Positions 49,216 to 64,000 of a DNA stretch of 64,000 bases are shown here, piece by piece. Source of the DNA: Chthoniobacterales bacterium (GTDB lineage: Bacteria > Verrucomicrobiota > Verrucomicrobiia > Chthoniobacterales > Chthoniobacteraceae). The notes beneath the pieces were generated by a model. It ran no database searches, was not told where the DNA came from, and worked only from the letters and a program-made list of their open reading frames with translations. Each line of letters starts with the position of its first letter. The first letter of the stretch is position 1. The translations under genes and the position numbers were made by a program. Location: assembly GCA_038207335.1 (NCBI GenBank), contig JBBQZX010000015.1:55445-119444 (forward strand), written 5' to 3'.

Positions 49216-49518
49216 GGGGTGGTTATTTTGGGGTTGAATATACCGATTCACCGCGCGCCCGAACAGACGTGTGCCGCTGGGCGTTCTCCGCATTTCGCCG
49301 AGAATCACCCACAGCGTACGCGGCATACGCTAGAGCATCGGCTTTGTCCAATGGAAGATTCGATGCTCAAATTCGATGTTTGGCACGCCGTAGGCACTCT
49401 CAGGAGAGCTGTCGCCGAAAGGCCTCCGTAAGCCGAAACCTGCCGATCCAAAAAGATGCAATCCACCAGAATTGCGCTACCTCTTGCTGGACGCGCGATT
49501 TTCGCTCGCCTATCCGCC

Positions 49519-52500
49519 GTGAACGCCCGCGCTCTCATCTTCCTCCTCGCCCTCGCCGCCGCCGCGCGCGCGGGCGTCGTGACCGATGGCACTGTCGGCA
49601 GCGCGGGCGCGATCGGGAAGGTCGGCGGGAACTTCGACATCCCTGCCAGCCTCGGTACGAAGTCGGGGGGCAATCTTTTCCACAGCTTCAGCGAGCTGAA
49701 TCTGGTCAGCGGCGAGTCCGCGACTTTCAGCGGACCGGGCGATGTGCAAAACATCCTCGCGCGCGTCCGCGGCCCCGAGACGAGCATCGACGGCACGCTG
49801 CGCTCGACCATTCCCGGCGCGAACTTTTTCCTCATCAACCCGAACGGCGTCGTCTTCGGTCCGAAAGCCAGCGTGGATGTCAGCGGCTCGTTCACCGTCA
49901 CCACCGCCGACCATCTGAAGCTCTCGGATGGCGGCCGCTTCGACGCTAAGACGCCTGCGATGGACAGCCTCACGAGCGCTCCGGTGAGCGCGTTTGGCTT
50001 CACCTCGCCGGCGCGGGTGAAGATCGACCGCAGTGATCTGGCGTTCGCGCCGGGCACGACTTTCTCCATCGTCGCGGGGAATATCGACATCGCTGGAAAC
50101 GGCGTCGGCGCTGCGAGGCGCGTGGGCGGCGACGGCGTCGCGATCAATCTCATCAGCGTGCGCGGCGAAGGCGAAGCCCGCCTGCCGGGCACGAGCACGG
50201 CGCGGCTCGTCGATGGGTTTTCGCAGCTCGGTGACATCACGCTCAGCTCGCGCGCGCTAGTGCGCACGGGCGGCGCGCAGGCGGGGCGCGTGGTCATTCG
50301 CGGGGGGAAATTGGTCGCTGTCGAGCAGAGCGGCATCCTCTCCGAGAGCACGGGGTCATCGCCCGGAGAGCCTGTGGATATCAACATTCGCGGCGGGGTG
50401 ACTGTCAGCTCGAGCACGCTTTTGTCCCGCACGAGCGGCAGCGCGGCGGCGTCTGATTTTCTTTTGAAAGCAGGATCGATCGACCTCGGCACAAGTTCCA
50501 CGATCGGCAGCCAGGCGCTTCTCGGCGCTACCTCCAGCGCGCGCACCGGCCGCGTTCGAATCGACGCGGGAACACTCGCAATCTCCGGCGAAAGCTCCAT
50601 CTCCGGCTCCTCCGCGGGCCTCGGGCGCGGCTCGCTCGTCGATGTGAATGCGCGCGACATCCGCATCGTCGGCGACCTCTCCGACACGCAGACCGGCATC
50701 TTCGCGAACGCGTTTGGCGACGGCGCGGGCGGCGACGTGCACGTGCGCGCGGACTCACTTTCGCTGACGCTCGGAGGCTCCATCTCCGCGGATACATTCG
50801 GCCGCGCCGCCGGTGGCAATGTGAGTGTGACTGCCGGCACGCTCGACATCGCCGCCCACGCATCGTCCGCGAATTCAGTAAAGACGGGCATCTTCGCCGA
50901 TTCGCTCCTCGCCGCGACCGCCGGACGCGGCGGCGCGGGCGGGGACGTGACTGTCAACGCGGGCACGCTCCGCATCAGCGATGGCGGACTCATTTCCACG
51001 AAAACCGTGGGTCTCGGCGCGGGCGGCGACACAGTCGTGAACGCCCGCGAACTCTTCATCAGCCGCGGCAGCTCGCCACTTTACACCGGCATCGCCGCCG
51101 ACGCCGCAGCAGGCGCGACGCCGAAAAAAGACAGCGAAGTCGCGCGAACCGGTCCCGGCGGCAGCGTGCTCGTCACCGCCGATGCCGTGCATCTTTCCGA
51201 TGGCGGCCAGATTTCCGCGAACACCGCGACGTTTGGAAAAGGCGGCAGCGTCACCGTCCGCGCCGCCGACATCGAGCTCACGGGCCGCGCCGATGGGCTC
51301 TTCACCGGCATCTCCGCCGAGAGCCTCTCGCCCGTCAGCGGCGGCGCGGGCGGCAATGTCGAGGTGGCCGCCGACCGCCTTCGCGTCATCGATGGCGGCG
51401 GCATTTCCGCGAACACGAACGGCGCAGGCGCGGGCGGCAGCGTGCTCGTGAAAGCCGACAGCATCCTGCTCTCGAACCCCGCCGCCGACCGCTTCACCGC
51501 CATCTCCGCCGTCTCAACTTCCCCCACCCGCGCGGGCCGCGGCGGCAGCATCCGCGTCGAGTCGCGCGGCCTCACGATCAGCGGCGGCGGCACCATCTCC
51601 GCCACCACCGCAGGCCCCGGCGCGGCAGGCGACGTCGTCATCGCCGCCGACTCCACGCGCCTCATCCGCGGCGGCCGCATCTCCGCCGACACCTCCGGCT
51701 CCGGCGCGGGCGGCAGCATTTCGCTCACGGGAAAATCGCTCCTCATCTCGAACACCGACGCCCTCCAGCGCACCGGCATTTTCTCGCGCAGCCTCGCCTC
51801 CGGCGTCGGCGGAGTCGGCGGAAAAATCGCGATCGACGAGGAAACGATCACGCTCACAAAAGGCGGCGCGATCGTCGCCAGCTCCGCGGGCGGCGGCAGC
51901 GGCGGCAGTATTACGATCGAGGCAAATCTTCTCACGCTCGACCGCACCGCATCCATCGAGGCCTCCGCCACCGGTCGCGGCATTGCGGGCAGCGTCGCCA
52001 TCCAGGTCGCCGAGCCGCTCACGCTCCGCAGCGGCGCGACCATCCGCACAACATCGGCCATCAGCGACGCGGGCACCGTCTCCATTTTCTCCGAGACCGC
52101 GATCGATCTCCTCGACAGCAGCATCACCGTCCAGGCCCTCCTCGGAAACGCAGGCCGCATCGCGCTCGTCGCTCCCGACCGCCTCACCCTGCGCCGCAGC
52201 CAGCTCCTCGCCGTCGCCGGGCTCAATGGCGGCGACATCTTCATCGACCCCGAATTCGTCTTCCTCGACCACAGCCTCATCAGCGCCAATGCCGCAGTCG
52301 GAGCCGGCGGCAACATCCAGCTCATCGCCGACTTTTACTTCAACTCCGAGACCCTCATCACCGCCACCGGCACGCAAGCCGGCACCATCAACATCGCCGC
52401 CCCCGAGCTCGACCTCAGCAACGGCCTCGTCAGCCTCCCCGGCAGCCTTATCGACGCCTCGACCCAACTCCGCGACCAATGCGCGCGCCGCCTCGGCGTT

Positions 52501-52596
52501 GATTTCAGCAGCTTTCTCGTCCTCGGCCGCGGCGGCGTCGAACTCAACCCCACCGACCCCGTCCTCTCGATCCGCAGGGTGAAAATCGCGCGCTGA
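49519..52596 (+). CDS. Filamentous haemagglutinin N-terminal (TPS) domain protein
   Basis: NLFHSFSELNL, NILARV and FLINPNGVVFG; repeated G.GG.V.V.A..L.I..GG.ISA units; start GTG 49519 or ATG 49456. Confidence 0.9.
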   Translation: MNARALIFLLALAAAARAGVVTDGTVGSAGAIGKVGGNFDIPASLGTKSGGNLFHSFSELNLVSGESATFSGPGDVQNILARVRGPETSIDGTLRSTIPGANFFLINPNGVVFGPKASVDVSGSFTVTTADHLKLSDGGRFDAKTPAMDSLTSAPVSAFGFTSPARVKIDRSDLAFAPGTTFSIVAGNIDIAGNGVGAARRVGGDGVAINLISVRGEGEARLPGTSTARLVDGFSQLGDITLSSRALVRTGGAQAGRVVIRGGKLVAVEQSGILSESTGSSPGEPVDINIRGGVTVSSSTLLSRTSGSAAASDFLLKAGSIDLGTSSTIGSQALLGATSSARTGRVRIDAGTLAISGESSISGSSAGLGRGSLVDVNARDIRIVGDLSDTQTGIFANAFGDGAGGDVHVRADSLSLTLGGSISADTFGRAAGGNVSVTAGTLDIAAHASSANSVKTGIFADSLLAATAGRGGAGGDVTVNAGTLRISDGGLISTKTVGLGAGGDTVVNARELFISRGSSPLYTGIAADAAAGATPKKDSEVARTGPGGSVLVTADAVHLSDGGQISANTATFGKGGSVTVRAADIELTGRADGLFTGISAESLSPVSGGAGGNVEVAADRLRVIDGGGISANTNGAGAGGSVLVKADSILLSNPAADRFTAISAVSTSPTRAGRGGSIRVESRGLTISGGGTISATTAGPGAAGDVVIAADSTRLIRGGRISADTSGSGAGGSISLTGKSLLISNTDALQRTGIFSRSLASGVGGVGGKIAIDEETITLTKGGAIVASSAGGGSGGSITIEANLLTLDRTASIEASATGRGIAGSVAIQVAEPLTLRSGATIRTTSAISDAGTVSIFSETAIDLLDSSITVQALLGNAGRIALVAPDRLTLRRSQLLAVAGLNGGDIFIDPEFVFLDHSLISANAAVGAGGNIQLIADFYFNSETLITATGTQAGTINIAAPELDLSNGLVSLPGSLIDASTQLRDQCARRLGVDFSSFLVLGRGGVELNPTDPVLSIRRVKIAR

Positions 52597-52676
52597 ATGG
52601 TCTCCCTCGCAAACGAGTTTACCGAACCTCACCACCGAGCTTAACCTCCCTCTCTCGAGATTCCCGCCTATACCTG

Positions 52677-54077
52677 ATGCCCCGACCCGCCGCGCTTTTT
52701 CACACCGACACCGAGCGCACCACCGCCGACGAGCCGCGCCGCGCTTTCGTCCGCAAAGCGCTCCGCGGATACGAAGTCACGCGCAGCAAGACAGCCGCGA
52801 CTTTCACCGACTGGCAGCAGGCGCGCACCGCGGCGGCGGAGACGAAATACGAGGGGATCAATCACCTCGACCGCTGCCTCGCCGAGTTCGAGGAAAAATT
52901 CACGGCCCGCGGCGGCAAAGTTTTCTGGGCCAGCACGAGCGCGCAGGCGCGCGAATATATCCTCAATCTTGCGCGCGAGCGCGGCGTGAAATCGATCGTC
53001 AAATCCAAGGCGATGACGAGCGAGGAAATCCACCTCAACGACGCGCTCGAGGCCGATGGATACAAGGTTGTCGAAAGCGATCTCGGCGAATTCATCCAGC
53101 AGCTCAAGCATGAGCCGCCGTATCATTTCGTATTCCCGTGCATGCACCTGAAGCGCGACGAGATCAGCGCGCTCTTCGAAAAAGAACTCGGCAGCGCGCC
53201 GAGCGATTCGCCCGAGGAACTCACGCTCATCGCGCGCCGATTCCTGCGCCAGACTTACATCGAGGCCGACATGGGGATCTCCGGCGGCAATTTCATCGTG
53301 GCCGAAACCGGCATGATTTCGATCACGGAAAACGAAGGCAACGCGCGCCTCACCACCGCGATGCCAAAGATTCACGTCGCCCTCGTCGGTATCGAGAAAG
53401 TGCTGCCAAAGCTCGCCGACCTGGCGCTTTTCCTCCCGATGCTCGCGACCGCCGGCACCGGCCAGCACATGACGTGTTACAACTCCATGTATGCCGGCCC
53501 GCGCCAGCCCGGCGAGACCGATGGCCCCGAGGAAATGCATGTCGTCCTCCTCGACAACCACCGCACCCGCCTCCTCGCCGATGCCGAGCAGCGCGACGCC
53601 CTCGGCTGCATCCGCTGCGGCGCTTGCCTGAATGTCTGCCCCATTTTCAAAAACATCGGCGGGCACGCATACGGGACGACCTACCAGGGCCCCATCGGCT
53701 CCGTCATCACACCGCACTTTCGCGGCCTGCAGGAGTTCAAGCACCTCAGCGCCGCGTCGTCGCTTTGCGGTGCCTGCACCGAGACGTGCCCGGTGAAAAT
53801 CGACATCCATCACCACCTGCTGCACAACCGCCGAAACGCCGTCGCGCAAAGTAAAGTCTGGTGGGAAAGGCTCATCTGGTTCGCGTTCGTCTTCGCCATG
53901 AAACGCCCGTGGACACTGCGTCTTGCGACCTTCTTTGCACCGCTGCAAAAGCTGCATCCCATCGTCCTTGGCACCGCGCTCGACCCGCTCCGCTCGTGGA
54001 CAAAATCGCGCGAATTCCCCGAGGTGGCGTTCGAGAGTTTTCACGACTGGTGGGCAAAACGGAACGCATCGAAATGA
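52677..54077 (+). CDS. lutB: Lactate utilization protein B (LutB/LldF, Fe-S)
   Basis: KSKAMTSEE, ESDLGEFI, ENEGNAR, CIRCGACLNVCP and SSLCGACTETCP. Confidence 0.93.
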   Translation: MPRPAALFHTDTERTTADEPRRAFVRKALRGYEVTRSKTAATFTDWQQARTAAAETKYEGINHLDRCLAEFEEKFTARGGKVFWASTSAQAREYILNLARERGVKSIVKSKAMTSEEIHLNDALEADGYKVVESDLGEFIQQLKHEPPYHFVFPCMHLKRDEISALFEKELGSAPSDSPEELTLIARRFLRQTYIEADMGISGGNFIVAETGMISITENEGNARLTTAMPKIHVALVGIEKVLPKLADLALFLPMLATAGTGQHMTCYNSMYAGPRQPGETDGPEEMHVVLLDNHRTRLLADAEQRDALGCIRCGACLNVCPIFKNIGGHAYGTTYQGPIGSVITPHFRGLQEFKHLSAASSLCGACTETCPVKIDIHHHLLHNRRNAVAQSKVWWERLIWFAFVFAMKRPWTLRLATFFAPLQKLHPIVLGTALDPLRSWTKSREFPEVAFESFHDWWAKRNASK

Positions 54078-54763
54078 CGGGCGACCGCGACAAAATTTAC
54101 GCACGAATCCGCGAGGCACTGCGCGAGCCCGCGCCTCGGCATCATGACGCACCGATGCGCTCAGGCGCTCCGACAGCGACCGCGGAATTCCGCGCATGGC
54201 TCCCGCACGTCGGCCCGGATTTCACCGACCGCGTCGCGCTTTTCGCTAAACAATCCGACGCGCTCAAAAGCGAATTTCTCGAATGCGCCGATGCAGCAGC
54301 CGCAGCCGCGCACATCGCGTCTCTCGCCGAATCCAACGACTGGAAACAAATCGCGCTGCATCCCGGTGAACTGACCGATGCAGTCGCAAACCATCTACCA
54401 GCGGGCCTCGCGCGGTTTCCGGTTGCGGGCGGATACGACAAATTCGCGCTCGAAAAATGCGACGCCGGCCTCACCGAATGCGAGACGCTCATCGCGCAAA
54501 CCGGCTCCGTCTGCGTCACCTCGCGCAGCTCCGGCGGCCGCGCGCTCAGCGTCGTTCCGCCGCACCACATCGTCCTCGCGCGCCGCGCCCAACTCATCCC
54601 CGACCTCACCGCCGCCTACGAGCATCTCGCAAAAAAATATGGCGCTTCCTACCCGAGCTTCATCTCATTCATCAGCGGCCCCAGCCGCACCGGCGACATC
54701 GAGCGCATCCTAGTCCTCGGCGCCCACGGCCCGAAAAAGCTGACGATTCTCCTGCTCCCTTAG
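54074..54763 (+). CDS. lutC: Lactate utilization protein C (LUD domain)
   Basis: IAQTGSV and ISGPSRTGDIE..LVLGAHGP; ATGA overlap with lutB. Confidence 0.92.
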   Translation: MTGDRDKIYARIREALREPAPRHHDAPMRSGAPTATAEFRAWLPHVGPDFTDRVALFAKQSDALKSEFLECADAAAAAAHIASLAESNDWKQIALHPGELTDAVANHLPAGLARFPVAGGYDKFALEKCDAGLTECETLIAQTGSVCVTSRSSGGRALSVVPPHHIVLARRAQLIPDLTAAYEHLAKKYGASYPSFISFISGPSRTGDIERILVLGAHGPKKLTILLLP

Positions 54764-54812
54764 CGATGGCGCGAGGGCTTGACCCCTCCCTTTCGCCGCG
54801 CATCCTCCGGTA

Positions 54813-55859
54813 ATGCGCCAATTCCTCCCCATCGCCCTCTCCGCCCTCCTCACGGCTTCCGCACTCGCCCATCCCGGCACCCCCGGCCTCGCTCCAAAAG
54901 ACGACACCACCATCATCGTGGCCCAGCTCACCGGCACCGCCGAGCAGACCTACCAGACCGTTCCGAATTGGGGCGAAATCCCCGACCCGATCAACATCGG
55001 CCCGACCCACGGCGGCGTCGTCATCGACAAAGCGGGCAACATCTACGTCTCCACCGACGGCCCGAAAGGCATCTTCGTCTTCGCCCCGGACGGCAAACTC
55101 ATCCGCACGATGGCACCCGAGTTTTCCGGCATCCACGGCGTTTGCATCCGCGAGGAAAACGGTCAGGAATTCATCTACGCCGCACACCTCCGCGGCCACC
55201 AAGTCCTCAAGCTCACCCTCGCCGGTAAAGCCGTCCTCACCATCCCCTATCCCAAGGAAGCCGACGCATACCCCGAGGGAAAAGGCTACAGCCCGACCGG
55301 CGTCGCAGTAGCGCCGAACGGCGACATTTTCGTCGTCGATGGATACGGCCTCTCGCTCGTTCACAAGTTCGACTCCACCGGCAAATGGCTGAAGACCTTC
55401 GGCGGAAAAGGTAAGGAGCCCGGCAAATTCATGACCTGCCACGGCATCACCCTCGACATGCGCACCGGCACTCCGCTGCTGCTCATTTGCGATCGTGAAA
55501 ATCGGCGCATCCAGCATTTCGATCTCGACGGAAATTTCGTCGCCGTAATCGCCACCGACCTCCGCCGTCCCTGCTCCGCCTCCATCCGCGGCGATTACGT
55601 CGCCGTCGCCGAGCTCGAGGGGCGCGTCACCATCCTGAACAAAGCCAACGAGCAGATCGCTCATCTCGGCGACAACCCCGACAAGTCGCTCTGGGCGAAA
55701 TTCGACGCGCCTCCCGCCGTCTGGTCACCCGGCATTTTCACCGCGCCACACGGCATCTCGTACGACGCCGCGGGCAATCTCTACGTGCAGGACTGGAACA
55801 AAACTGGACGCGTCACGAAGCTCAACAAAGCCGCGCCGCCCGCGACCGTTTCTCGCTGA
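54813..55859 (+). CDS. Secreted NHL-repeat beta-propeller protein
   Basis: Signal peptide; PTGVAVAPNGDIFVVDGYG, CDRENRRIQHF and APHGI..D..GNLYV. Confidence 0.85.
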   Translation: MRQFLPIALSALLTASALAHPGTPGLAPKDDTTIIVAQLTGTAEQTYQTVPNWGEIPDPINIGPTHGGVVIDKAGNIYVSTDGPKGIFVFAPDGKLIRTMAPEFSGIHGVCIREENGQEFIYAAHLRGHQVLKLTLAGKAVLTIPYPKEADAYPEGKGYSPTGVAVAPNGDIFVVDGYGLSLVHKFDSTGKWLKTFGGKGKEPGKFMTCHGITLDMRTGTPLLLICDRENRRIQHFDLDGNFVAVIATDLRRPCSASIRGDYVAVAELEGRVTILNKANEQIAHLGDNPDKSLWAKFDAPPAVWSPGIFTAPHGISYDAAGNLYVQDWNKTGRVTKLNKAAPPATVSR

Positions 55860-55868
55860 GTCTGCCGT

Positions 55869-57251
55869 GTGAAAATCGCCGCGATGATGCTCGGCGACCG
55901 CTACGCCGACTGGCGCGCCGCTGACGCAAGCGTCCGCGAAGCCGTTCTGGTACAAGCTCCGCGGCGATTCACCGAGCACGAGCTGCAGGCGCACTGGTTC
56001 GCCGGCGACTTTGGGCGCGACTTCACCACCACCGCCGGCACGCCAGTCCGCGTCGTGCAATTCGGCGTCTGGAATCACGAAGCCGGCCCCGACTTCGCCG
56101 AGGCCGCCATCTCGCTCGACGGCGCGCCCGCCATCCGCGGCTGCATCGAACTCGATCCCGACGCGCGCGATTGGGAGCGCCACGGCCACGCCACGAATCC
56201 GGCGTATGAAAACGTCATCCTCCACACTTTCCCCGAGCGCGGTCCTGTCGAATTTTTCACCCGCACCCTCCTCCACCGCAACGTCCCGCAAGTCCTACTG
56301 GACCTCTCTCAGCTCTCGCTGAAATCCCCACAGTCGCTTCCCGAAGCCAAGCTCGGCCGCTGCAGCGGCCCCCTCCGCGCACTCACCGAAGACCGCGCCC
56401 GCGACATCCTCCTCGGTGCCGCCGACTTCCGCCTCCGGCGAAAAGCCGCGCAACTCGCCACCCTCGCCGAACTCCACGGCCCCGACGAAGCGCTCTTCCA
56501 ATCACTCGCCGCCGCACTCGGCTACAAGAGCAACAAACTCCCTTTCACCCTCCTCGCCCAGCGCCTCCCGCTCCGCCTCCTCCAGCGCGCAAAAGCCGAC
56601 GCCGACGCCCTGCTCTTCGGCGTCAGCGGATTCCTTACCACCACAAATCTCGCCGACTTCGATGTCCCCACACGCACCTATCTCCGCGGTCTGTGGGAGA
56701 AATGGTGGCCGCGCCGCACCGAGTTCGAGCGCCTCACGATCACGCCCGCGCATTGGAAAATGGGCGGCCAGCGTCCGGCGAATCATCCGCAGCGCAGGCT
56801 CGCAGCCCTCGCGCAAATCGTCCGCCACTGGCCGCGCGTGCGAGCCTTGGCAAAAGAGTGCAACCCTTCCGCGCTGCACGAGTTTTTCGTCGGACTCCGC
56901 GATGAATATTGGGAGCACCACTTCACCGTGACCTCAAAAACCACCGCCACTCGCATGGCCCTCGTCGGCGAAAGTCGCGTCGTCGAAATGCTCGCCAACG
57001 TCTTTTTCCCGCTCGCCATCTCCGCCGACGAATCCCGCGCGATCGGCTACCGCAATCTCCCCGCCGCGCCCACCAATCGCCGCATCGCCGTCGCCGCCAT
57101 CCGCCTCTTCGGCGACGACCCCCGCCAGCGCACCCTCCTCAAAACCGTCGCGATGCAGCAAGGCCTCCTGCAAATCTACGAAGACTTCTGCCTCCAAGAC
57201 GCCACCGACTGCGCCCGCTGCCGATTCCCCGAGCAACTATCAGCGTGGTGA
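55869..57251 (+). CDS. DUF2851 family protein
   Basis: GVWNHEAGPDF, DWERHGH..NPAY.NVILH, RPANHPQRRL and C-terminal C..C..C. Confidence 0.85.
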   Translation: MKIAAMMLGDRYADWRAADASVREAVLVQAPRRFTEHELQAHWFAGDFGRDFTTTAGTPVRVVQFGVWNHEAGPDFAEAAISLDGAPAIRGCIELDPDARDWERHGHATNPAYENVILHTFPERGPVEFFTRTLLHRNVPQVLLDLSQLSLKSPQSLPEAKLGRCSGPLRALTEDRARDILLGAADFRLRRKAAQLATLAELHGPDEALFQSLAAALGYKSNKLPFTLLAQRLPLRLLQRAKADADALLFGVSGFLTTTNLADFDVPTRTYLRGLWEKWWPRRTEFERLTITPAHWKMGGQRPANHPQRRLAALAQIVRHWPRVRALAKECNPSALHEFFVGLRDEYWEHHFTVTSKTTATRMALVGESRVVEMLANVFFPLAISADESRAIGYRNLPAAPTNRRIAVAAIRLFGDDPRQRTLLKTVAMQQGLLQIYEDFCLQDATDCARCRFPEQLSAW

Positions 57252-57283
57252 ACGCCCGATAATTGCTGAATCCCAAATCCCAA

Positions 57284-58582
57284 ATGCAAAATTCCGTCCG
57301 CCCCCTCGTCGCCGACATCGTCCAGCGCACGCCCGTCTTCGACATGCACACGCATCTCTACGACCCCGCATTCGGCGAGTTGCTGCTCTGGGGCATCGAC
57401 GACCTCCTCACCTACCACTACCTCGTCGCCGAGAGTTTCCGCTGGCTCGACATCCCGTACGAGAAATTTTGGACCCTCTCAAAATCCGAGCAGGCCAACC
57501 TCATCTGGGACACGCTTTTCATCTCCCACTCCCCCATCTCCGAAGCCTGCCGCGGCGTCCTCACCACCCTCAACCGCCTCGGCTTCGACCTCAAAAAACG
57601 CGACCTCCCCGCGATCCGAAAGCACTACGCCCAGTGGTCCGTCGGCGACTTCATCACGAAGTCCATGGAGCTCGCGAACGTCCGCAAAATCTGCATGACC
57701 AACTCCCCGTTCGACGACATCGAGCGGCCCGTCTGGGAGCGCGGCTTCACGCGCGACCCGCGCTTCGTCGCCGCCCTTCGCATCGATCCGCTGCTGCTAG
57801 ATTGGGAAAATAGCGCGCGAAAATTGCACTCGTGGGGCTACGACGTCCGCGCCGATTTCTCCGGCCAGACCTTCCCCGAAGTCCGCCGCTTCCTCGGCGT
57901 CTGGACCCGCCGCATCGGCTCCCAGTATTGCATGATCTCCCTCCCGCCTGACTTCGATTTCCTCTCAGTCACCGTCGAGACCGCCGCGAAAATCGACGAC
58001 ACCGAAGCCCGCGCCGGCATCAGCTACCGCCGCGCAGCGTGCAGCCTCCTCATCGAGCACGCCATCCTCCCTCACGGGCGCGAGCACGACCAGGCATTCG
58101 CCCTCATGATCGGCGTCCGCCGAAACTCAAACCCCTCGCTGCGCCTCGCCGGCGACAGCGTCGGCCCCAGCGACCCCTCCGCCGTCGAGCGCCTCTGCGG
58201 TACATTTCCCCAGAATAAATTCCTCTGCACCACCCTCGCCCGAGAAGACCAGCACGCCCTCTGCGTCGCCGCGCGCAAATTCCGCAACCTGCACATCTTC
58301 GGCTGCTGGTGGTTCCTGAACAACCCATCGCTCATCGAGGAAATCGCCCGCATGAGGATCGAGCTCATCGGCCTCAGCGTCACCCCCCAGCACAGCGACT
58401 GCCGCGTCCTCGACCAGCTCATCTACAAATGGGCCCACTCCCGCCCGATCCTCGAGAAAGTCCTCGGCGACAAATACACCGACCTCGCCGCCACCGGCTG
58501 GGAGCCCACGCGTGCCGAAATCGAGCGCGACGTCCACGACCTCCTCGGCGGCTCCCTCGAGACGTTCATCGGGAGAAAATAG
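57284..58582 (+). CDS. uxaC: Uronate (glucuronate) isomerase, Bacillus halodurans-type
   Basis: DMHTHL, LLTYHYL, CMTNSPFD, FGCWWFLN and QHSDCRVLDQLIYKW. Confidence 0.85.
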   Translation: MQNSVRPLVADIVQRTPVFDMHTHLYDPAFGELLLWGIDDLLTYHYLVAESFRWLDIPYEKFWTLSKSEQANLIWDTLFISHSPISEACRGVLTTLNRLGFDLKKRDLPAIRKHYAQWSVGDFITKSMELANVRKICMTNSPFDDIERPVWERGFTRDPRFVAALRIDPLLLDWENSARKLHSWGYDVRADFSGQTFPEVRRFLGVWTRRIGSQYCMISLPPDFDFLSVTVETAAKIDDTEARAGISYRRAACSLLIEHAILPHGREHDQAFALMIGVRRNSNPSLRLAGDSVGPSDPSAVERLCGTFPQNKFLCTTLAREDQHALCVAARKFRNLHIFGCWWFLNNPSLIEEIARMRIELIGLSVTPQHSDCRVLDQLIYKWAHSRPILEKVLGDKYTDLAATGWEPTRAEIERDVHDLLGGSLETFIGRK

Positions 58583-58647
58583 ACCCGCTCGGCAACGCGG
58601 CTTTTCGTGGAATTCCGGCACCCTCCTGCCGCACTCCAAACCCACCG

Positions 58648-61107
58648 CTACTCCGGCGCGTCGAGGTCGATGAGGATCTCCCGCGGCTTCGCACCTTCGC
58701 CAGCCGCGACGTATCCGCGGGCTTCGAGGATGTCCAGGATGCGGGCGGCGCGCGTGTAACCGAGGCGGAGGCGGCGCTGGAAGAGCGAGGTGGATGCCTT
58801 CTTTTCCTGCCGCATGACTTCGAGGCATTTCTCGACAAGTTCCTCGTCCTCGGCACTGACTTCCTCGGCGTCGCCCGAGCCGCCCGATTGCAGTCGCTCG
58901 TGGATCGTGGAGTCGAAGGCCGGCCCGCTCTGCGCTGAGGCGTGCTCGACCACGCGGTGGACTTCCTCGTCGGTGACGAGGACGCCCTGCGCGCGAATCA
59001 TGCGCGACGTGCCCGGCGGGCGATAGAGCATGTCACCCATGCCCAGCAGCCGCTCAGCACCGTTTTCATCGAGGATGACTCGCGAATCGAGAGGGGAGGA
59101 GACTTGGAAGGCGATGCGGCACGGGACGTTGGCCTTGATAACGCCGGTGATGACATCCGCGCGCGGAGTCTGCGTGGCGATGATCATGTGCAGCCCGGCG
59201 GCGCGCGCTTTTTGCGTGATGCGCGCGATGGCACTCTCCACATCGGCGGGCGCGGTCTGCATGAGGTCGGCGAGTTCGTCCACGATGATGACGATGAACG
59301 GCATCCGATCCGGCACGATGAGCTCCTCGGCTTCGCGCGGGACGGCGATCTTCGGCTTCGACGCGATCTTGAAAAGCTCGTCGTCGTCCATGTTTGCAAA
59401 GTCGATCTCCTCGGGCTCCACCACGGCCTCGGGTTCCGCGGGGATCGGCTCTGCTGCTTGTTTCGCTTCGAGTTCCTCGTCGAGCTGCTTCTGTGATTTG
59501 GGCAGCGGGCGCTCGTTGAAGCTGCCGATATTTCGCACGCCGACTTTGGCGAAAATGGCATATCGCTTTTCCATCTCATCGACCGCCCAGCGCAGCGCGA
59601 GGAGCACTTTCTTCGGATCAGTGACGACCGGCACGACCAGATGCGGGAGCGTGTTGTACATCTGCATCTCGACGACCTTCGGGTCGATCATGATGAGCCG
59701 CAGATCCTCGGGCGTGAATCGGTAGAGGATGCTCGCGATGATCGCGTTGATGCAGACGCTCTTCCCCGAGCCGGTTGTGCCCGCGACGAGGCCGTGAGGC
59801 ATCGCGGCGAGGTCGGCGATGACTGTCTTGCCGTACACATCTTTGCCCAGCGCGATCGGGATGCGCGCTTTGGAATGTTGAAAGTCGTCGCTCTCAAGCA
59901 GTTCACGCAGCGTGACTTTCTGCTTCTTGGAATTCGCGATCTCGATGCCGACCGTGTCTTTGCCCGGAATCGGTGCGAGGATGTTGATCCGCTCGGCGCG
60001 GGTGGCGCGGGCGATGTCGCGCTCCAGCGCGGTGATCTTGTCCACGCGCACACCTTTCGCCGGATACACTTCGTATCGCGTGATCGTCGGCCCGCGTGTG
60101 ATGTCGCCGCGCGAGACGACAATGCCGAACTGCGCGAGCGTCTCGATGATCATCTCCTGCGTCGCGAGGAGTTCCGCCGGATCGGCGGCCTGCCGCGAGG
60201 CGTGGTCGATCGGATCGAGCAGTTCGAGCGAAGGCATCTCATAGCCCTCGCAGGAGAGCGTCGCGAGGGCCTGAATGTCTTCCTTTTTGGGCTTCGGCAC
60301 CTTTTCGCGGACCGGCTGCGGCGCACCGCCATCGATGATTTTCGGCGCGGGTCGCGGCGGCTCTTCCTCCTCGGCGCTGAGCTTGAATTCCTCCTGCGGA
60401 GCCTCTGCGGTCGCGGCAGGCGCGCCGCGCTTCGTCAGCGTCTTCTCGAGCCGCCGCCGCTCCTTTTCCAGACGCGCTGCATCGATTTGAAGTTGTTGCG
60501 CCTCATTCGCATGCGCGCGCTGACGGGCGCGATATTTCTCCAAAAGGATGCCCGGCATGGCGATCGCACGCCGCACCACTTCCACCGGATGAATGCCCGT
60601 CATCAGAATCAGGCTCGCGACGTAGGCGCACAGCAGGACCACCAACGCGCCGATCGAGCCGAGCGCGGCGTGCAGCATACGATGGCCGATCCACTGGCCG
60701 ATCCAGCCGCCCTCGCCTGCGATATTCATCCGATCAGCGCCGATGAATGCGAACGGCAGCACCTCCGCCAGACACGCCGCCGACACCACGAAAAGCGCGC
60801 ACCACGCGACCCGGCGAGCCAGCGCGAGACTTGGCGAAAGCAGCTTCGCCCCGCCGCAGCCGAGCAGCACCGCCGCCACGAGATACGACGCCGCGCCCAG
60901 CATGAAATAGCACGCCCCAGCGACCCACGCGCCGAGCGGGCCGATGAAATTCTGCGCCGTCCGATTCGGCGGCGAGTAATACCACGACAGATCGCGGGGC
61001 GTGTAAGAGATGAGCGCGAGGAAGAGCAGCGTGCCCAGCCCGAGCAGCGCGAGGCCGATCGCTTCGTGATAGGGGGAATTTTCGGTCTGGACCTGCGCGC
61101 GCGGCAT
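58648..61107 (-). CDS. ftsK: DNA translocase FtsK
   Basis: 4TM N-terminus, GTTGSGKS, MIDPK, DELADLM and gamma domain QRRLRLGYTRAARI. Confidence 0.97.
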   Translation of the reverse strand: MPRAQVQTENSPYHEAIGLALLGLGTLLFLALISYTPRDLSWYYSPPNRTAQNFIGPLGAWVAGACYFMLGAASYLVAAVLLGCGGAKLLSPSLALARRVAWCALFVVSAACLAEVLPFAFIGADRMNIAGEGGWIGQWIGHRMLHAALGSIGALVVLLCAYVASLILMTGIHPVEVVRRAIAMPGILLEKYRARQRAHANEAQQLQIDAARLEKERRRLEKTLTKRGAPAATAEAPQEEFKLSAEEEEPPRPAPKIIDGGAPQPVREKVPKPKKEDIQALATLSCEGYEMPSLELLDPIDHASRQAADPAELLATQEMIIETLAQFGIVVSRGDITRGPTITRYEVYPAKGVRVDKITALERDIARATRAERINILAPIPGKDTVGIEIANSKKQKVTLRELLESDDFQHSKARIPIALGKDVYGKTVIADLAAMPHGLVAGTTGSGKSVCINAIIASILYRFTPEDLRLIMIDPKVVEMQMYNTLPHLVVPVVTDPKKVLLALRWAVDEMEKRYAIFAKVGVRNIGSFNERPLPKSQKQLDEELEAKQAAEPIPAEPEAVVEPEEIDFANMDDDELFKIASKPKIAVPREAEELIVPDRMPFIVIIVDELADLMQTAPADVESAIARITQKARAAGLHMIIATQTPRADVITGVIKANVPCRIAFQVSSPLDSRVILDENGAERLLGMGDMLYRPPGTSRMIRAQGVLVTDEEVHRVVEHASAQSGPAFDSTIHERLQSGGSGDAEEVSAEDEELVEKCLEVMRQEKKASTSLFQRRLRLGYTRAARILDILEARGYVAAGEGAKPREILIDLDAPE

Positions 61108-61249
61108 TGGACGGGAGAATAGCGGGCCGATTCCGCTTTTCAATGCTCCAGTGCATTCCTGCGAAAGACTTCCAGTCCGACGCGCGCTTTCCTCCGTGAG
61201 CGCGATTTGAATGCTACACAACCCCGCCTCCCGCACCTTACCCTCACGC

Positions 61250-62191
61250 ATGTCCGAACCCATCGTCTTCGAGCCCCTCTTCATGGAACGCGTCTGGGGA
61301 GGCCGGCGCCTCGAGACCCGCTACGGCAAACGCCTCCCCCCCGGCGCCCGCGTCGGCGAATCCTGGGAAATCGTCGATCGCGAAGAAGCCCAGAGCGTCG
61401 TGCACGACGGCCCATTCCGCGGCTCCACACTCCACGACCTCTGGACCGAGCACCGCGACACCCTCTTCGGCACCGGATTCGCCGACATCGCGCGCTTTCC
61501 CCTCCTCTTCAAAATCCTCGATGCCCAAGAGCGCCTCTCAATGCAAGTCCACCCCCCCGCCGAAGTCGCCGCCCGCATCGGCGGCGAATCGAAGACCGAA
61601 ATGTGGCACATCCTCGAGACCCTCACCGGCGCCGCCATCTACGCCGGCCTCCGCAACGGCGTCACCCGCGACGACTTCTCCGCGGCCCTCGCCGATAGCC
61701 ACATCGCCGACCGCGTCCACCGCATCCCCACCCACGCCGGCGACACCATGTTCATCCCCAGCGGCCGCATCCACGCCATCGGCGCCGGCAATCTCATCTT
61801 CGAAGTCCAGCAAAACAGCGACACCACCTACCGCGTCTTCGACTGGAACCGCATCGGCCTCGACGGCGCACCGCGCCCCCTCCACATCGCCGAATCCCTC
61901 GCCTCCATCGACTTCGCCGACCACGAGCCCACCATGCTCCAGCCCTCCGGCGAGACCATCGCCCACTGCGAGCACTTCCATGTGGAAAAATGGCACCTCG
62001 ACGCCCCCCGGAGCAGTGGGGGTGAAACCTTCGCCGTCATCATGATCCTCTCCGGCGAAGTCGAATGCTGCCAGCGACGCTTCACCGCCGGCCGCTTCCT
62101 CCTCCTCCCCGCCGACTGCCCCGACCGCGAGCTCACCCCCCGCGCCACCGGCACCACCCTCCTCCGCACCACCATCCCCCGCCCGAGCTGA
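61250..62191 (+). CDS. manA: Type I mannose-6-phosphate isomerase
   Basis: LLFKILDA..LSMQVHP, KTEMW and HAIG..EVQQNSDTTYRVFDW. Confidence 0.93.
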   Translation: MSEPIVFEPLFMERVWGGRRLETRYGKRLPPGARVGESWEIVDREEAQSVVHDGPFRGSTLHDLWTEHRDTLFGTGFADIARFPLLFKILDAQERLSMQVHPPAEVAARIGGESKTEMWHILETLTGAAIYAGLRNGVTRDDFSAALADSHIADRVHRIPTHAGDTMFIPSGRIHAIGAGNLIFEVQQNSDTTYRVFDWNRIGLDGAPRPLHIAESLASIDFADHEPTMLQPSGETIAHCEHFHVEKWHLDAPRSSGGETFAVIMILSGEVECCQRRFTAGRFLLLPADCPDRELTPRATGTTLLRTTIPRPS

Positions 62192-62229
62192 GTTCGGTGG
62201 AAAATCCCACCTCTCTGTCATTGCGGAGC

Positions 62230-62620
62230 CGCTACCTCCACCGCCCCCAGACCCCCTCCACCCGCCCCCACCCACACTTAAACCCGCCCTGTCGGGACCC
62301 CCCGACCGTACGGAACAACCCCCCGACCCCCCGTCAGAGCTTCCCGACCGCCCGGAACTACCCATAGGCGTCCACGGAACTACCTCCCGCCCGGCCCACC
62401 ACACCGCCCACCGACGCCCCCGCCAATACCCACTGGCGACCCCGGAACTCCCCCTTGGCGCGCCCGTCACACCCTCCCCACCGCCCGTCACATCTACCCC
62501 CTCGCGCGAAACTCCCCATCAAGCCCACAAACACCCTAAAAAAATCGACCCTCCCACCCCATAGCCCTCTTGCCAAAAACGCTCGCCCTGCTCCCCTCTC
62601 ACCCATGCCCTCCAGAGAAC
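62230..62620. repeat. C-rich low-complexity tract with degenerate ~21-nt repeats
   Basis: CGGAAC recurs at 62311, 62353, 62375 and 62443; CGCCCGTCACA occurs at 62461 and 62482. Confidence 0.55.
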
Positions 62621-62669
62621 CCCTCCGAAATAGCCGAAACGATTTCGCATTCAAAAGTGAAAACATTTC

Positions 62670-62688
62670 GTCCAATTCAGAGTTAGGG
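62670..62688 (+). other. Candidate integron attI / first-cassette core site, split by a MITE
   Basis: GTCCAAT-N5-GTTAG; removing the MITE gives GTTAGGGGTCATATC-ATG immediately before cassette ORF 1. Confidence 0.5.
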
Positions 62689-62834
62689 AACCGCTGATTT
62701 AATCGACACTTGAAAAATTTGACGCGCTTTCGACCATCCAAATCACCTTCCGGTGAGATTAAAGTCGTTTCTACGCCATTCTCGTGCGTTGAATTCCGCG
62801 GAAAATTCGGCCATTGATTAAATCAGCGGTTCCC
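62686..62834. mobile_element. 149-bp MITE with perfect terminal inverted repeats
   Basis: TAGGGAACCGCTGATTTAATC (62684-704) and GATTAAATCAGCGGTTCCCTA (62816-836) are exact reverse complements; TA flanks both ends; no credible internal coding sequence. Confidence 0.85.
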
Positions 62835-62847
62835 TAGGGGTCATATC

Positions 62848-63411
62848 ATGCGTTCTCTAATAATCATCGTTTTTAGCCTCGCGTTTGCTGGGCTGTCACA
62901 CGCGAAGGAGCACAAGAACGTTGGCGACCTTAATCCAGACAAGCTTCGCGTGCTGTCACCCGACGGCGAATACGAACTCTGGAACCAAGACAACATTTTC
63001 GTGATCAATCCGAGAGGCATCGACGGCTCTTTCTTTTCTGACGATGTCCCCGAGTTGGAAGATTCTCTCCGTCATAACGCACTCTATGCGACTTGGAGTC
63101 CAGATAGCCGCATGGTTGCTGTCTGTGTTCCCACCGGCAAGTATATCGAGCACACCTTTGTGTTCCTGCGCCAACCACGCGATGCGTGGAGGTGCCTCCG
63201 CCTTCCATGCGACGATCCCGATTCGCAGGTCGTCCCTCTAAAGTGGCTCGACGCAACCACACTTATGGTAGAGATCAGCGGCAGTTACGGCGGCAAAGCG
63301 GACCATGACATTTATTTCTATACGGCGACATTCAAATACAACCCCGCAAAACACGCCTTCACCAAGGCTTCCGTCACAAAGCCGCACACGAAGAAACCAC
63401 ACTACCAATGA
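62848..63411 (+). CDS. Gene-cassette ORF 1: secreted hypothetical protein with beta-propeller-like SPDG/WSPDS motifs
   Basis: Signal peptide; lower GC than the flanks; stop codon 1 nt before the attC. Confidence 0.8.
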   Translation: MRSLIIIVFSLAFAGLSHAKEHKNVGDLNPDKLRVLSPDGEYELWNQDNIFVINPRGIDGSFFSDDVPELEDSLRHNALYATWSPDSRMVAVCVPTGKYIEHTFVFLRQPRDAWRCLRLPCDDPDSQVVPLKWLDATTLMVEISGSYGGKADHDIYFYTATFKYNPAKHAFTKASVTKPHTKKPHYQ

Positions 63412-63412
63412 C

Positions 63413-63515
63413 GCCTAACCAAGCGATGCAGCGAACGCTCCGGGCTGGTCACGTCTCCTGCTTGGGCAGGAGTCGCGCCCATCCCTCCGTGTCGCTGATC
63501 TTGAGGTCGTTAGGC
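63413..63515 (+). other. Integron attC recombination site
   Basis: R'' GCCTAAC, 5 nt, L'' GATGCAGC ... L' GCTGATC, 8 nt, R' GTTAGGC; extra G in L''; inner CTCCTGC/GCAGGAG hairpin. Confidence 0.9.
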
Positions 63516-63553
63516 GATTTTCGCGCACCGTTCCTACAATCTTGCATCTCATT

Positions 63554-63868
63554 ATGTTTCTGACCCGCAATGATGACCAATTTGTTGATGCGGCATTCTC
63601 ATTCGACCGGCGCACGACAATGCTCGCGAAGCTTCACAGACACCGGAAGCTCTGGATTATTGTGTCCGCGATCCAAGCCATCTGTCTCGTCGGTGAGTCC
63701 ATCGGACGTTTCTTCGGAGAGCGTGCATCGCCTTCTGCCCTCCCTGCCATCGGCCTTTGCTTTGCGGTATCTCTCATCATTTTGCGAGACGTGGCGACCC
63801 GCATCTGGCTTGTTGAGATCATCCAGCGAACTACGAACAAGCCCGGTGAGCCTAATCAAAGCGCCTAA
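63554..63868 (+). CDS. Gene-cassette ORF 2: small two-TM hypothetical protein
   Basis: Starts just after GTTAGGC; its stop TAA lies inside the next GCCTAAC R'' box. Confidence 0.7.
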   Translation: MFLTRNDDQFVDAAFSFDRRTTMLAKLHRHRKLWIIVSAIQAICLVGESIGRFFGERASPSALPAIGLCFAVSLIILRDVATRIWLVEIIQRTTNKPGEPNQSA

Positions 63869-63869
63869 C

Positions 63870-64000
63870 TGTTGCGCCTCGACAGGTTGTGCGCAGTGAT
63901 GGGGAGTCTGGAGGATGGGGCGAGGGAGTGCAAGGCGGAGTGGGGGCGGTGGAAGTTGTAGTCGTGGAGGTAGTGAGGGAGGAAGGTGGCGCGGTGGTCG
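63870..64000 (-). mobile_element. Right end of an IS481-family insertion sequence (runs off the window)
   Basis: End begins TGT at 63870. Minus-strand frame reads DHRATFLPHYLHDYNFHRPHSALHSLAPSSRLPITAHNLSRRNS*, with the stop TAG (63865-67) formed from target DNA. Confidence 0.85.

Follow-up and report, generated by a model that had tools for sequence, protein, structure and literature searches.

The cassette array at the end of the window (the whole 64-kb stretch of DNA that was analysed, i.e., the last 64 kb of contig C15) is headed by an attI site of its own that has no integrase gene beside it, and this site is homologous to the attI lying next to the one intact intI of the same genome (G000; 5.17 Mb, 94.7% complete). 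The reading that we hold to be probable is that this orphan attI was filled in trans by the integrase encoded on contig C3, that an IS481-family element which targets R'' boxes and rebuilds them inserted behind the second cassette, and that a MITE landed near the head of the array by chance.

Layout of the array

The upstream neighbour, which lies outside the element, is a manA-like phosphomannose isomerase gene (61250–62191, plus strand; Pfam PF20511, E 5e-12). It is followed by a C-rich spacer of 435 bp (62192–62626) that carries a short tandem repeat of the 21/42-bp type (62461–62500) and shares its final ~58 bp with attI heads on contigs C36 and C28. The orphan attI (62627–62688, plus strand) consists of an imperfect inverted repeat and a simple site; counted from 62627, it spans ~60 bp and is thus longer than the 17-bp simple site, which comprises an L box GTCCAAT (62670–62676), a 5-nt spacer and a core that starts at 62682, with the crossover between 62682 and 62683. 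An IS5-family MITE of 147 bp with inverted repeats (62687–62833), flanked by TTAG and CTAG, precedes the cassette 1 ORF (187 aa; 62848–63411, plus strand), whose product has a hydrophobic N-terminus. An intact attC of 103 bp (63413–63515, plus strand; R'' at 63413–63419, R' at 63509–63515) separates this ORF from that of cassette 2 (104 aa; 63554–63868, plus strand), the stop codon of which falls within the cassette 2 R'' box (63863–63869, plus strand). The last six bases of this box are the target of an IS481-family element, whose right end (63870–64000, minus strand; 131 bp of ~1037 bp) is interrupted by the end of the contig and of the window, so that the array downstream lacks linkage to the window.

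The attI-like site, the two ORFs, the attC and the second R'' box, GCCTAAC, all lie where a preliminary description of the locus had placed them, and matches to rve_3 and NF033577 bear out its IS481 end directly 3' of that box. It had also reported that no intI separates manA from the array, and neither an ORF nor a remnant could be detected there at the protein or DNA level. No integron integrase was found on C15 upstream of the array, and downstream the contig ends in IS481. A complete integron has intI adjacent to attI; here, the gene is on C3.

In the attC, the R''/R' and L''/L' pairing and a bottom-strand hairpin with extrahelical bases are present. The bottom strand folds at −31.8 kcal/mol (z −6.0; equalled by none of 200 shuffles), the top strand less strongly, and profiles built from the genome match both arms. 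Neither cassette ORF has a Pfam or NCBIfam match; for cassette 1, 15 unnamed homologues were found. The array on C15 contains this one full attC and one R'' split off by the IS.

Scanning for a σ70 consensus promoter upstream of attI yielded none, and an Rfam search gave no match. A 30-codon ORF (62605–62697) crosses the attI core into the MITE. It was considered as a possible leader peptide: further solo heads have an ATG in a comparable position, but neither the reading frame nor the peptide is conserved. The region from 49456 to 61108 encodes, as judged by eye, a haemagglutinin-like secreted protein, LutB/LutC-like proteins, an NHL-repeat protein, a uronate isomerase-like protein and FtsK. 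In five of seven relatives from the genus, manA adjoins genes that are located on C39 in G000, and synteny gave no downstream contig.

Solo attI heads and the integrase that may fill them

The one intact intI of the genome (TIGR02249, 477 bits against a cut-off of 265) has the catalytic motifs and no internal stop, encodes a protein 93% identical to the integrase of the relative G005, and is the only one above the cut-off. The array had been described as integrase-less, which is true locally and fails for the genome as a whole, where the intact intI on C3 is accompanied by a homologous attI. The window attI is identical to it at 48 of 61 positions, and equally so to the attI of G005; it matches the attI profile with E 5e-19. 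Its first cassette is joined at the G|TT crossover.

Of the ten array heads found in G000, eight are solo (C15, C36, C28, C44, C3:265600, C29, C50 and C24, the last degenerate); the other two lie next to intI and to an intI stub (C35), respectively. Wherever the first R'' is visible (8/8 heads), the start of the cassette is complementary to the flank of its own R'' at nine or more of 11 bases, as counted by hand; in the window, 11 of 12 bases complement the R'' flank of cassette 1 when the MITE is discounted. Such a complementary joint at the crossover is the mark of insertion by an integrase. A 171-bp attC at the solo head on C50 is identical at 166 of 171 positions to one in the intI-linked array, and the heads on C44 and C3:265600 share an intI-free leader of ~480 bp (84.6%) with different first cassettes behind it. 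Thus, the solo heads are homologous to the intI-linked attI, have their joints at the crossover and share a pool of attC sites with it.

A BLAST-type search of 40 relatives with the window attI returned nothing, and a profile search was required to find such sites elsewhere. The profile matched 25 of 149 genomes of the family. We examined 42 matching loci, weighted to multi-copy genomes; three had no clear core, and the 39 resolved comprised 32 solo sites, three beside an intI stub, three beside an intact intI and one on a sequence too short to tell. Among the solo loci, the first R'' could be seen in 14, and 11 of these had the complementary joint. Seven of ten genomes checked have an intI above the cut-off; none was detected in G050 (94% complete), G145 (97%) or G008 (54%), the first two of which have several solo sites each. 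The intI stubs vary in length (C35; L061, L062 and L073), and some loci of relatives classed as solo carry, as judged by eye, a short intI-like 5' sequence. The stubs are explained by duplicated integrons that have lost intI. In G022 (L038–L040), four to five complete intI–attI copies were seen, several within 50 kb.

The spacer of the window attI is one base longer than that of intI-linked sites. In a hand count over G000 and its relatives, which are not independent genomes, none of 21 sites with a long spacer and eight of 27 with a short one were linked to intI; the solo head on C50 has a short spacer. A tandem repeat of the 21/42-bp type occurs within 1.2 kb upstream of six of the eight solo heads in G000 and of 12 of 32 solo loci in relatives, against 2.2% of random control positions, which were not restricted to intergenic DNA. 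Several solo attI sites adjoin small helical-plus-FN3-like genes (a fold label given by eye) without an NCBIfam match; such repeats or genes upstream of solo heads are found at L015:885-2032, L010:822-1221, L014, L261, L264 and L267, and all three G000 members of one such gene family precede attC-like sites.

The observations above suggest that the C3 integrase would fill stand-alone attI heads in trans, at least eight of them in G000, and that it may still act on the site in the window. Recognition of attI only by the cognate integrase has been described (PMC2095811, in the portion of the text available), and therefore another integrase, lost or unassembled, may have filled the window site. 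Specifically, the long-spacer solo sites could be served by a second integrase that is missing from the assembly or comes from passing mobile integrons. The recurrence of long-spacer sites across genera without a single intI-linked case, together with the several heads of G050 and G145, speaks in favour of such an enzyme, but G000 has a single integrase above the cut-off, the solo head on C50 has a short spacer, and the sites are otherwise ~75–80% identical to the C3 attI; we regard a second integrase as quite unlikely. It is unlikely, too, that the solo heads are relics of complete integrons that lost intI in place, with cassettes loaded earlier and a locus now inert and decaying, as the proposed freezing of the array would imply. 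Stubs of graded length exist, G022 retains whole integrons, 16 of the 38 left arms of attC sites in G000 lack a right-hand partner, and the literature names intI loss among the origins of CALINs (PMC4889954, available part). Against these stand a window spacer without any trace of intI, the intI-free leader common to C44 and C3:265600 in front of different cassettes, an attC 97% identical between solo and intI-linked arrays, and the intact state of the window attI and its first attC.

Entry of the cassettes into an ordinary secondary site (attG) that happens to resemble attI seems highly improbable to us: insertion by attC × attG recombination is an established reaction from which small CALINs have been proposed to arise (10.1101/2022.09.11.507474), yet attG sites, according to the available text of the same source, resemble attI neither in sequence nor in structure, whereas here ~60 bp of homology to an intI-linked attI (E 5e-19) is repeated at many loci. 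A broader proposal, which we put forward as a tentative possibility, is that a module of promoter plus attI is itself the spreading unit, that long-spacer pads multiply without an integrase, and that the IS481 element is a cassette parasite carried by IntI between arrays and species. There would then be an old lineage of long-spacer pads, often beside modules of phased 21/42-bp repeats and FN3 genes, and one IntI would gain a genome-wide network of capture sites.

The MITE and the IS481-family element

Two unrelated elements had been proposed to use integron cores as landing pads, which agrees with our data for the IS481 element and disagrees for the MITE, a general YTAR inserter. The MITE is present at the first GTTAG as described, and it sits just behind this sequence rather than inside the core, without spanning the crossover; L box, spacer and crossover are therefore unchanged, and the MITE is formally part of cassette 1. 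It is 77–80% similar to MITEs of relatives, and its ends recur in a full-length element that codes for an IS5 transposase (NF033581, 349 bits). With two mismatches allowed, the ends were detected in ~55 of 121 genomes of the family; the exact end pattern occurs in none of 400 other genomes of the phylum, a sample without any family member. YTAR abuts 40 of 43 unique MITE ends (30 loci). The window flanks differ at one base, and the target is the 4-bp YTAR; a 2-bp TA duplication, which fits the window alone, was dropped since relatives show the 4-bp target. None of 30 MITE sites in relatives (29 loci) could be shown to lie at an att core: of eight ends that resembled a core, the best reached 8/11 (L295, borderline), and the second MITE of G000 (on C28) is not at an att core either. 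Of three viral matches to the MITE end, two proved to be IS5-like stubs and the third a chance match; a plasmid search for the IS5 end gave no match. The MITE is thus likely a chance YTAR insertion and not core-seeking.

The IS481 end in the window shows 78–85% DNA identity to complete elements, and complete relatives score 291–298 bits against an IS481 transposase cut-off of 224; the assembly contains only 44 aa of the window copy. The element has TGT...ACA ends, and the stop codon of its transposase is supplied by the target. G000 contains five right ends of this type (C15, C24, C22, C28 and C4), all directly after an R''-like TAAC; the copy at the end of C24, likewise behind an R'', is identical to that in the window. 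Database records sharing the window end come mostly from Chthoniobacterales and other Verrucomicrobiota.

For target statistics we used a metagenome scan with a pattern free of the target, which gave 120 listed loci of ~190, with 119 ends that had a flank, 114 of them non-duplicate; an earlier pattern for the genome collection included the target and was left out of these statistics, while its 37 loci do enter the counts of truncation and attC restoration below. Among the metagenome matches listed, CCTAAC, mostly within an attC R'', precedes 87 of 114 right ends and NCTAAC 98 of 114; the CTAG type precedes five, and two are reversed. Thirty-one complete elements of ~1037 bp were among the matches listed, with an exact 6-bp duplication in 20 and unequal flanks in 11. 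Behind 19 of these 31 stands an attC left arm and behind none an R'-type arm; the base before the hexamer is a purine in 30 and the base after it C in 28. Of the 50 listed ends with 500 bp of upstream sequence, 31 are preceded by a matching cassette start on their own strand and eight by one on the opposite strand. The element thus represents a verrucomicrobial lineage that inserts at CCTAAC of the attC R'' box, nearly always in the same orientation. The palindromic NCTAGN is the preference of some family members only and not the target of this lineage.

Targeting is not absolute, because one left end, on C37, interrupts another IS481 transposase gene at CCTAGG. The target would supply a stop codon in either orientation, so that acquisition of the stop does not explain the orientation bias. 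Insertions that hit genes are purged, which inflates the proportion located in attC; survivorship of non-coding insertions contributes to it. The transposase itself likely reads, as we infer, an asymmetric variant of NCTAGN of ~8 bp, and the choice of R'' over R' could be explained by the neighbouring bases alone (a purine ahead of the hexamer and C behind it). Instead, the element might read the folded attC or an integrase-bound site, or might have no preference beyond CCTAAC and survive mainly in attC. This is rather doubtful in our estimation: the 19 R'' matches against no R' match, though both boxes hold the hexamer, and the 182 of 233 CCTAAC words in G000 that are not att sites (with ~23–27 in R'' and 15 in R') are in line with it, but the purine and the C alone separate R'' from R', and the C37 copy lies within a transposase gene.

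The insertions had been thought to freeze the array, a view at odds with the intact attI crossover and first attC and with a consensus R'' that the IS rebuilds. Because the element ends in A and duplicates CCTAAC, it is followed by ACCTAAC (consensus RYYYAAC). Precisely this arrangement is seen at the start of C17, where the left end of the IS precedes the same six bases, a complete attC of 124 bp and a further cassette. C17 may be the continuation of the window; C24 and a further right end in read run X1 compete for the link. Seven of 15 long-enough relatives have a full attC behind the IS, and eight of 15 have none by a strict pattern. Judged from these sequences, the IS481 element likely leaves its site usable rather than frozen, and after rebuilding R'' it would ride inside a cassette as cargo. 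The depth of the IS in the reads (contig depths; possibly of the source sample) is ~4 times that of the locus. No MITE-free or IS-free form was seen in the reads, an absence that carries no weight.

Of 106 resolvable right ends, 66 are stubs, 54 of them 23–55 bp long (duplicates included). Right ends being stubs so often, and a full attC being absent behind the IS in those eight of 15 relatives, many such arrays decay. A sharp edge at 55 bp in the truncation lengths was considered as a signal and rejected, as ordinary decay fits equally well given the 26-bp detection floor. Array ends (C17:610, C16:1562, C28:22791, C1:419118, C42:1478 and the IS stubs in L086–L245) often lie 25–55 bp past the last R'' and are half attC sites or IS481 stubs; the half attC on C17 runs over the stop of a host gene, with ~10 bases in common. 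Termination at this distance may reflect erosion or a dedicated process.

Several further arrangements were noted. At L020 (C28:14900-15500), an IS30-like transposase remnant (by eye) lies directly upstream of an R'' carrying an IS481 stub. One common sequence replaces the attC left arm behind the IS481 duplication on the long contigs L092, L098, L102 and L108; in L098 and L193, IS481 has inserted in tandem, using the rebuilt box. Other IS types in G000 also occupy attC cores. An IS110-family element (transposase C-terminus by eye) is found at attC R' cores, with AG as its core and a consensus R' left behind; its non-coding end has short matches to target and donor, like a bridge RNA. One end of it is seen at the end of C29, C36:101-105 and C28:23105, the other at the starts of C22 and C41, the end of C1 and C16:208-338 (loci L010, L011, L014, L019 and L022). 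An IS1182-like element, whose best NCBIfam match is below the cut-off, lies at attC R' cores with a TTAG duplication (L024:3440-4870 at the end of C33, and the starts of C34 and C42).

Relation to known systems

Earlier publications cover cassette arrays without an integrase (CALINs) and how they are mobilised in trans, insertion at attG sites, and IS1111 elements and introns that target attC (PMC4889954, PMC12444791, 10.1101/2022.09.11.507474, PMC11187229, PMC3146285, PMC3001079 and PMC2095811); comparisons here follow the available portions of these sources and of those cited below. The locus is a well-supported variant of known systems, namely an orphan attI array probably filled in trans, with a chance MITE and a specialist IS481. 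Most CALINs have no intI pseudogene nearby, half are in genomes with intI elsewhere, and IS are often adjacent (PMC4889954, Cury et al. 2016). The window array resembles them in having attC and no integrase nearby, but an attI of its own stands at its head; this site is homologous to the intI-linked attI of the genome and present in at least eight copies, and a single complete attC is visible on C15. With the intI–Pc–attI platform (attI1, PMC3146285) it shares a simple site of inverted boxes, the G|TT crossover, extra upstream repeats and cassettes at the crossover; it differs in that intI is absent in cis, the upstream part is an imperfect inverted repeat and the spacer has one base more. Small cassette arrays scattered on the chromosome recall attG insertion and SALINs (Loot et al., 10.1101/2022.09.11.507474), whereas attG is described in the text available as unlike attI and the heads studied here are attI homologues.

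Among IS481 members, ISLxc2 and ISLxx4 use NCTAGN targets and borrow stop codons (PMC2516522, available part), and an IS481 in P. fluorescens SBW25 targets REP sequences (PMC11708052, available part). Shared with the window element are TGT...ACA ends, a length of ~1 kb, a 6-bp duplication, a target-derived stop and homing to a repeated non-coding site; in contrast, the window element uses the asymmetric CCTAAC of R'' in a fixed orientation and its box is rebuilt. IS1111-attC elements (PMC11187229) and group IIC-attC introns (PMC3001079) are likewise mobile elements specialised on attC, but the former are RNA-guided DEDD elements that make no target duplication and the latter retroelements, while the window IS481 has a DDE transposase and a 6-bp target duplication. 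A search of the open-access literature gave no report of solo attI in multiple copies, nor of attC as a target of IS481; ISfinder or subscription papers on IS481 or attI could contain earlier accounts of either.

With an R''-homing IS481 that restores its target box, the small set of attC specialists would come to include a DDE transposon, and an IS would have a route of travel as cassette cargo. IntegronFinder looks for exact attI of classes 1–3 only (PMC4889954, available part), and orphan attI heads are therefore invisible to current tools. Such heads offer a testable origin for some CALINs and would make these arrays receiving sites, not only reservoirs.
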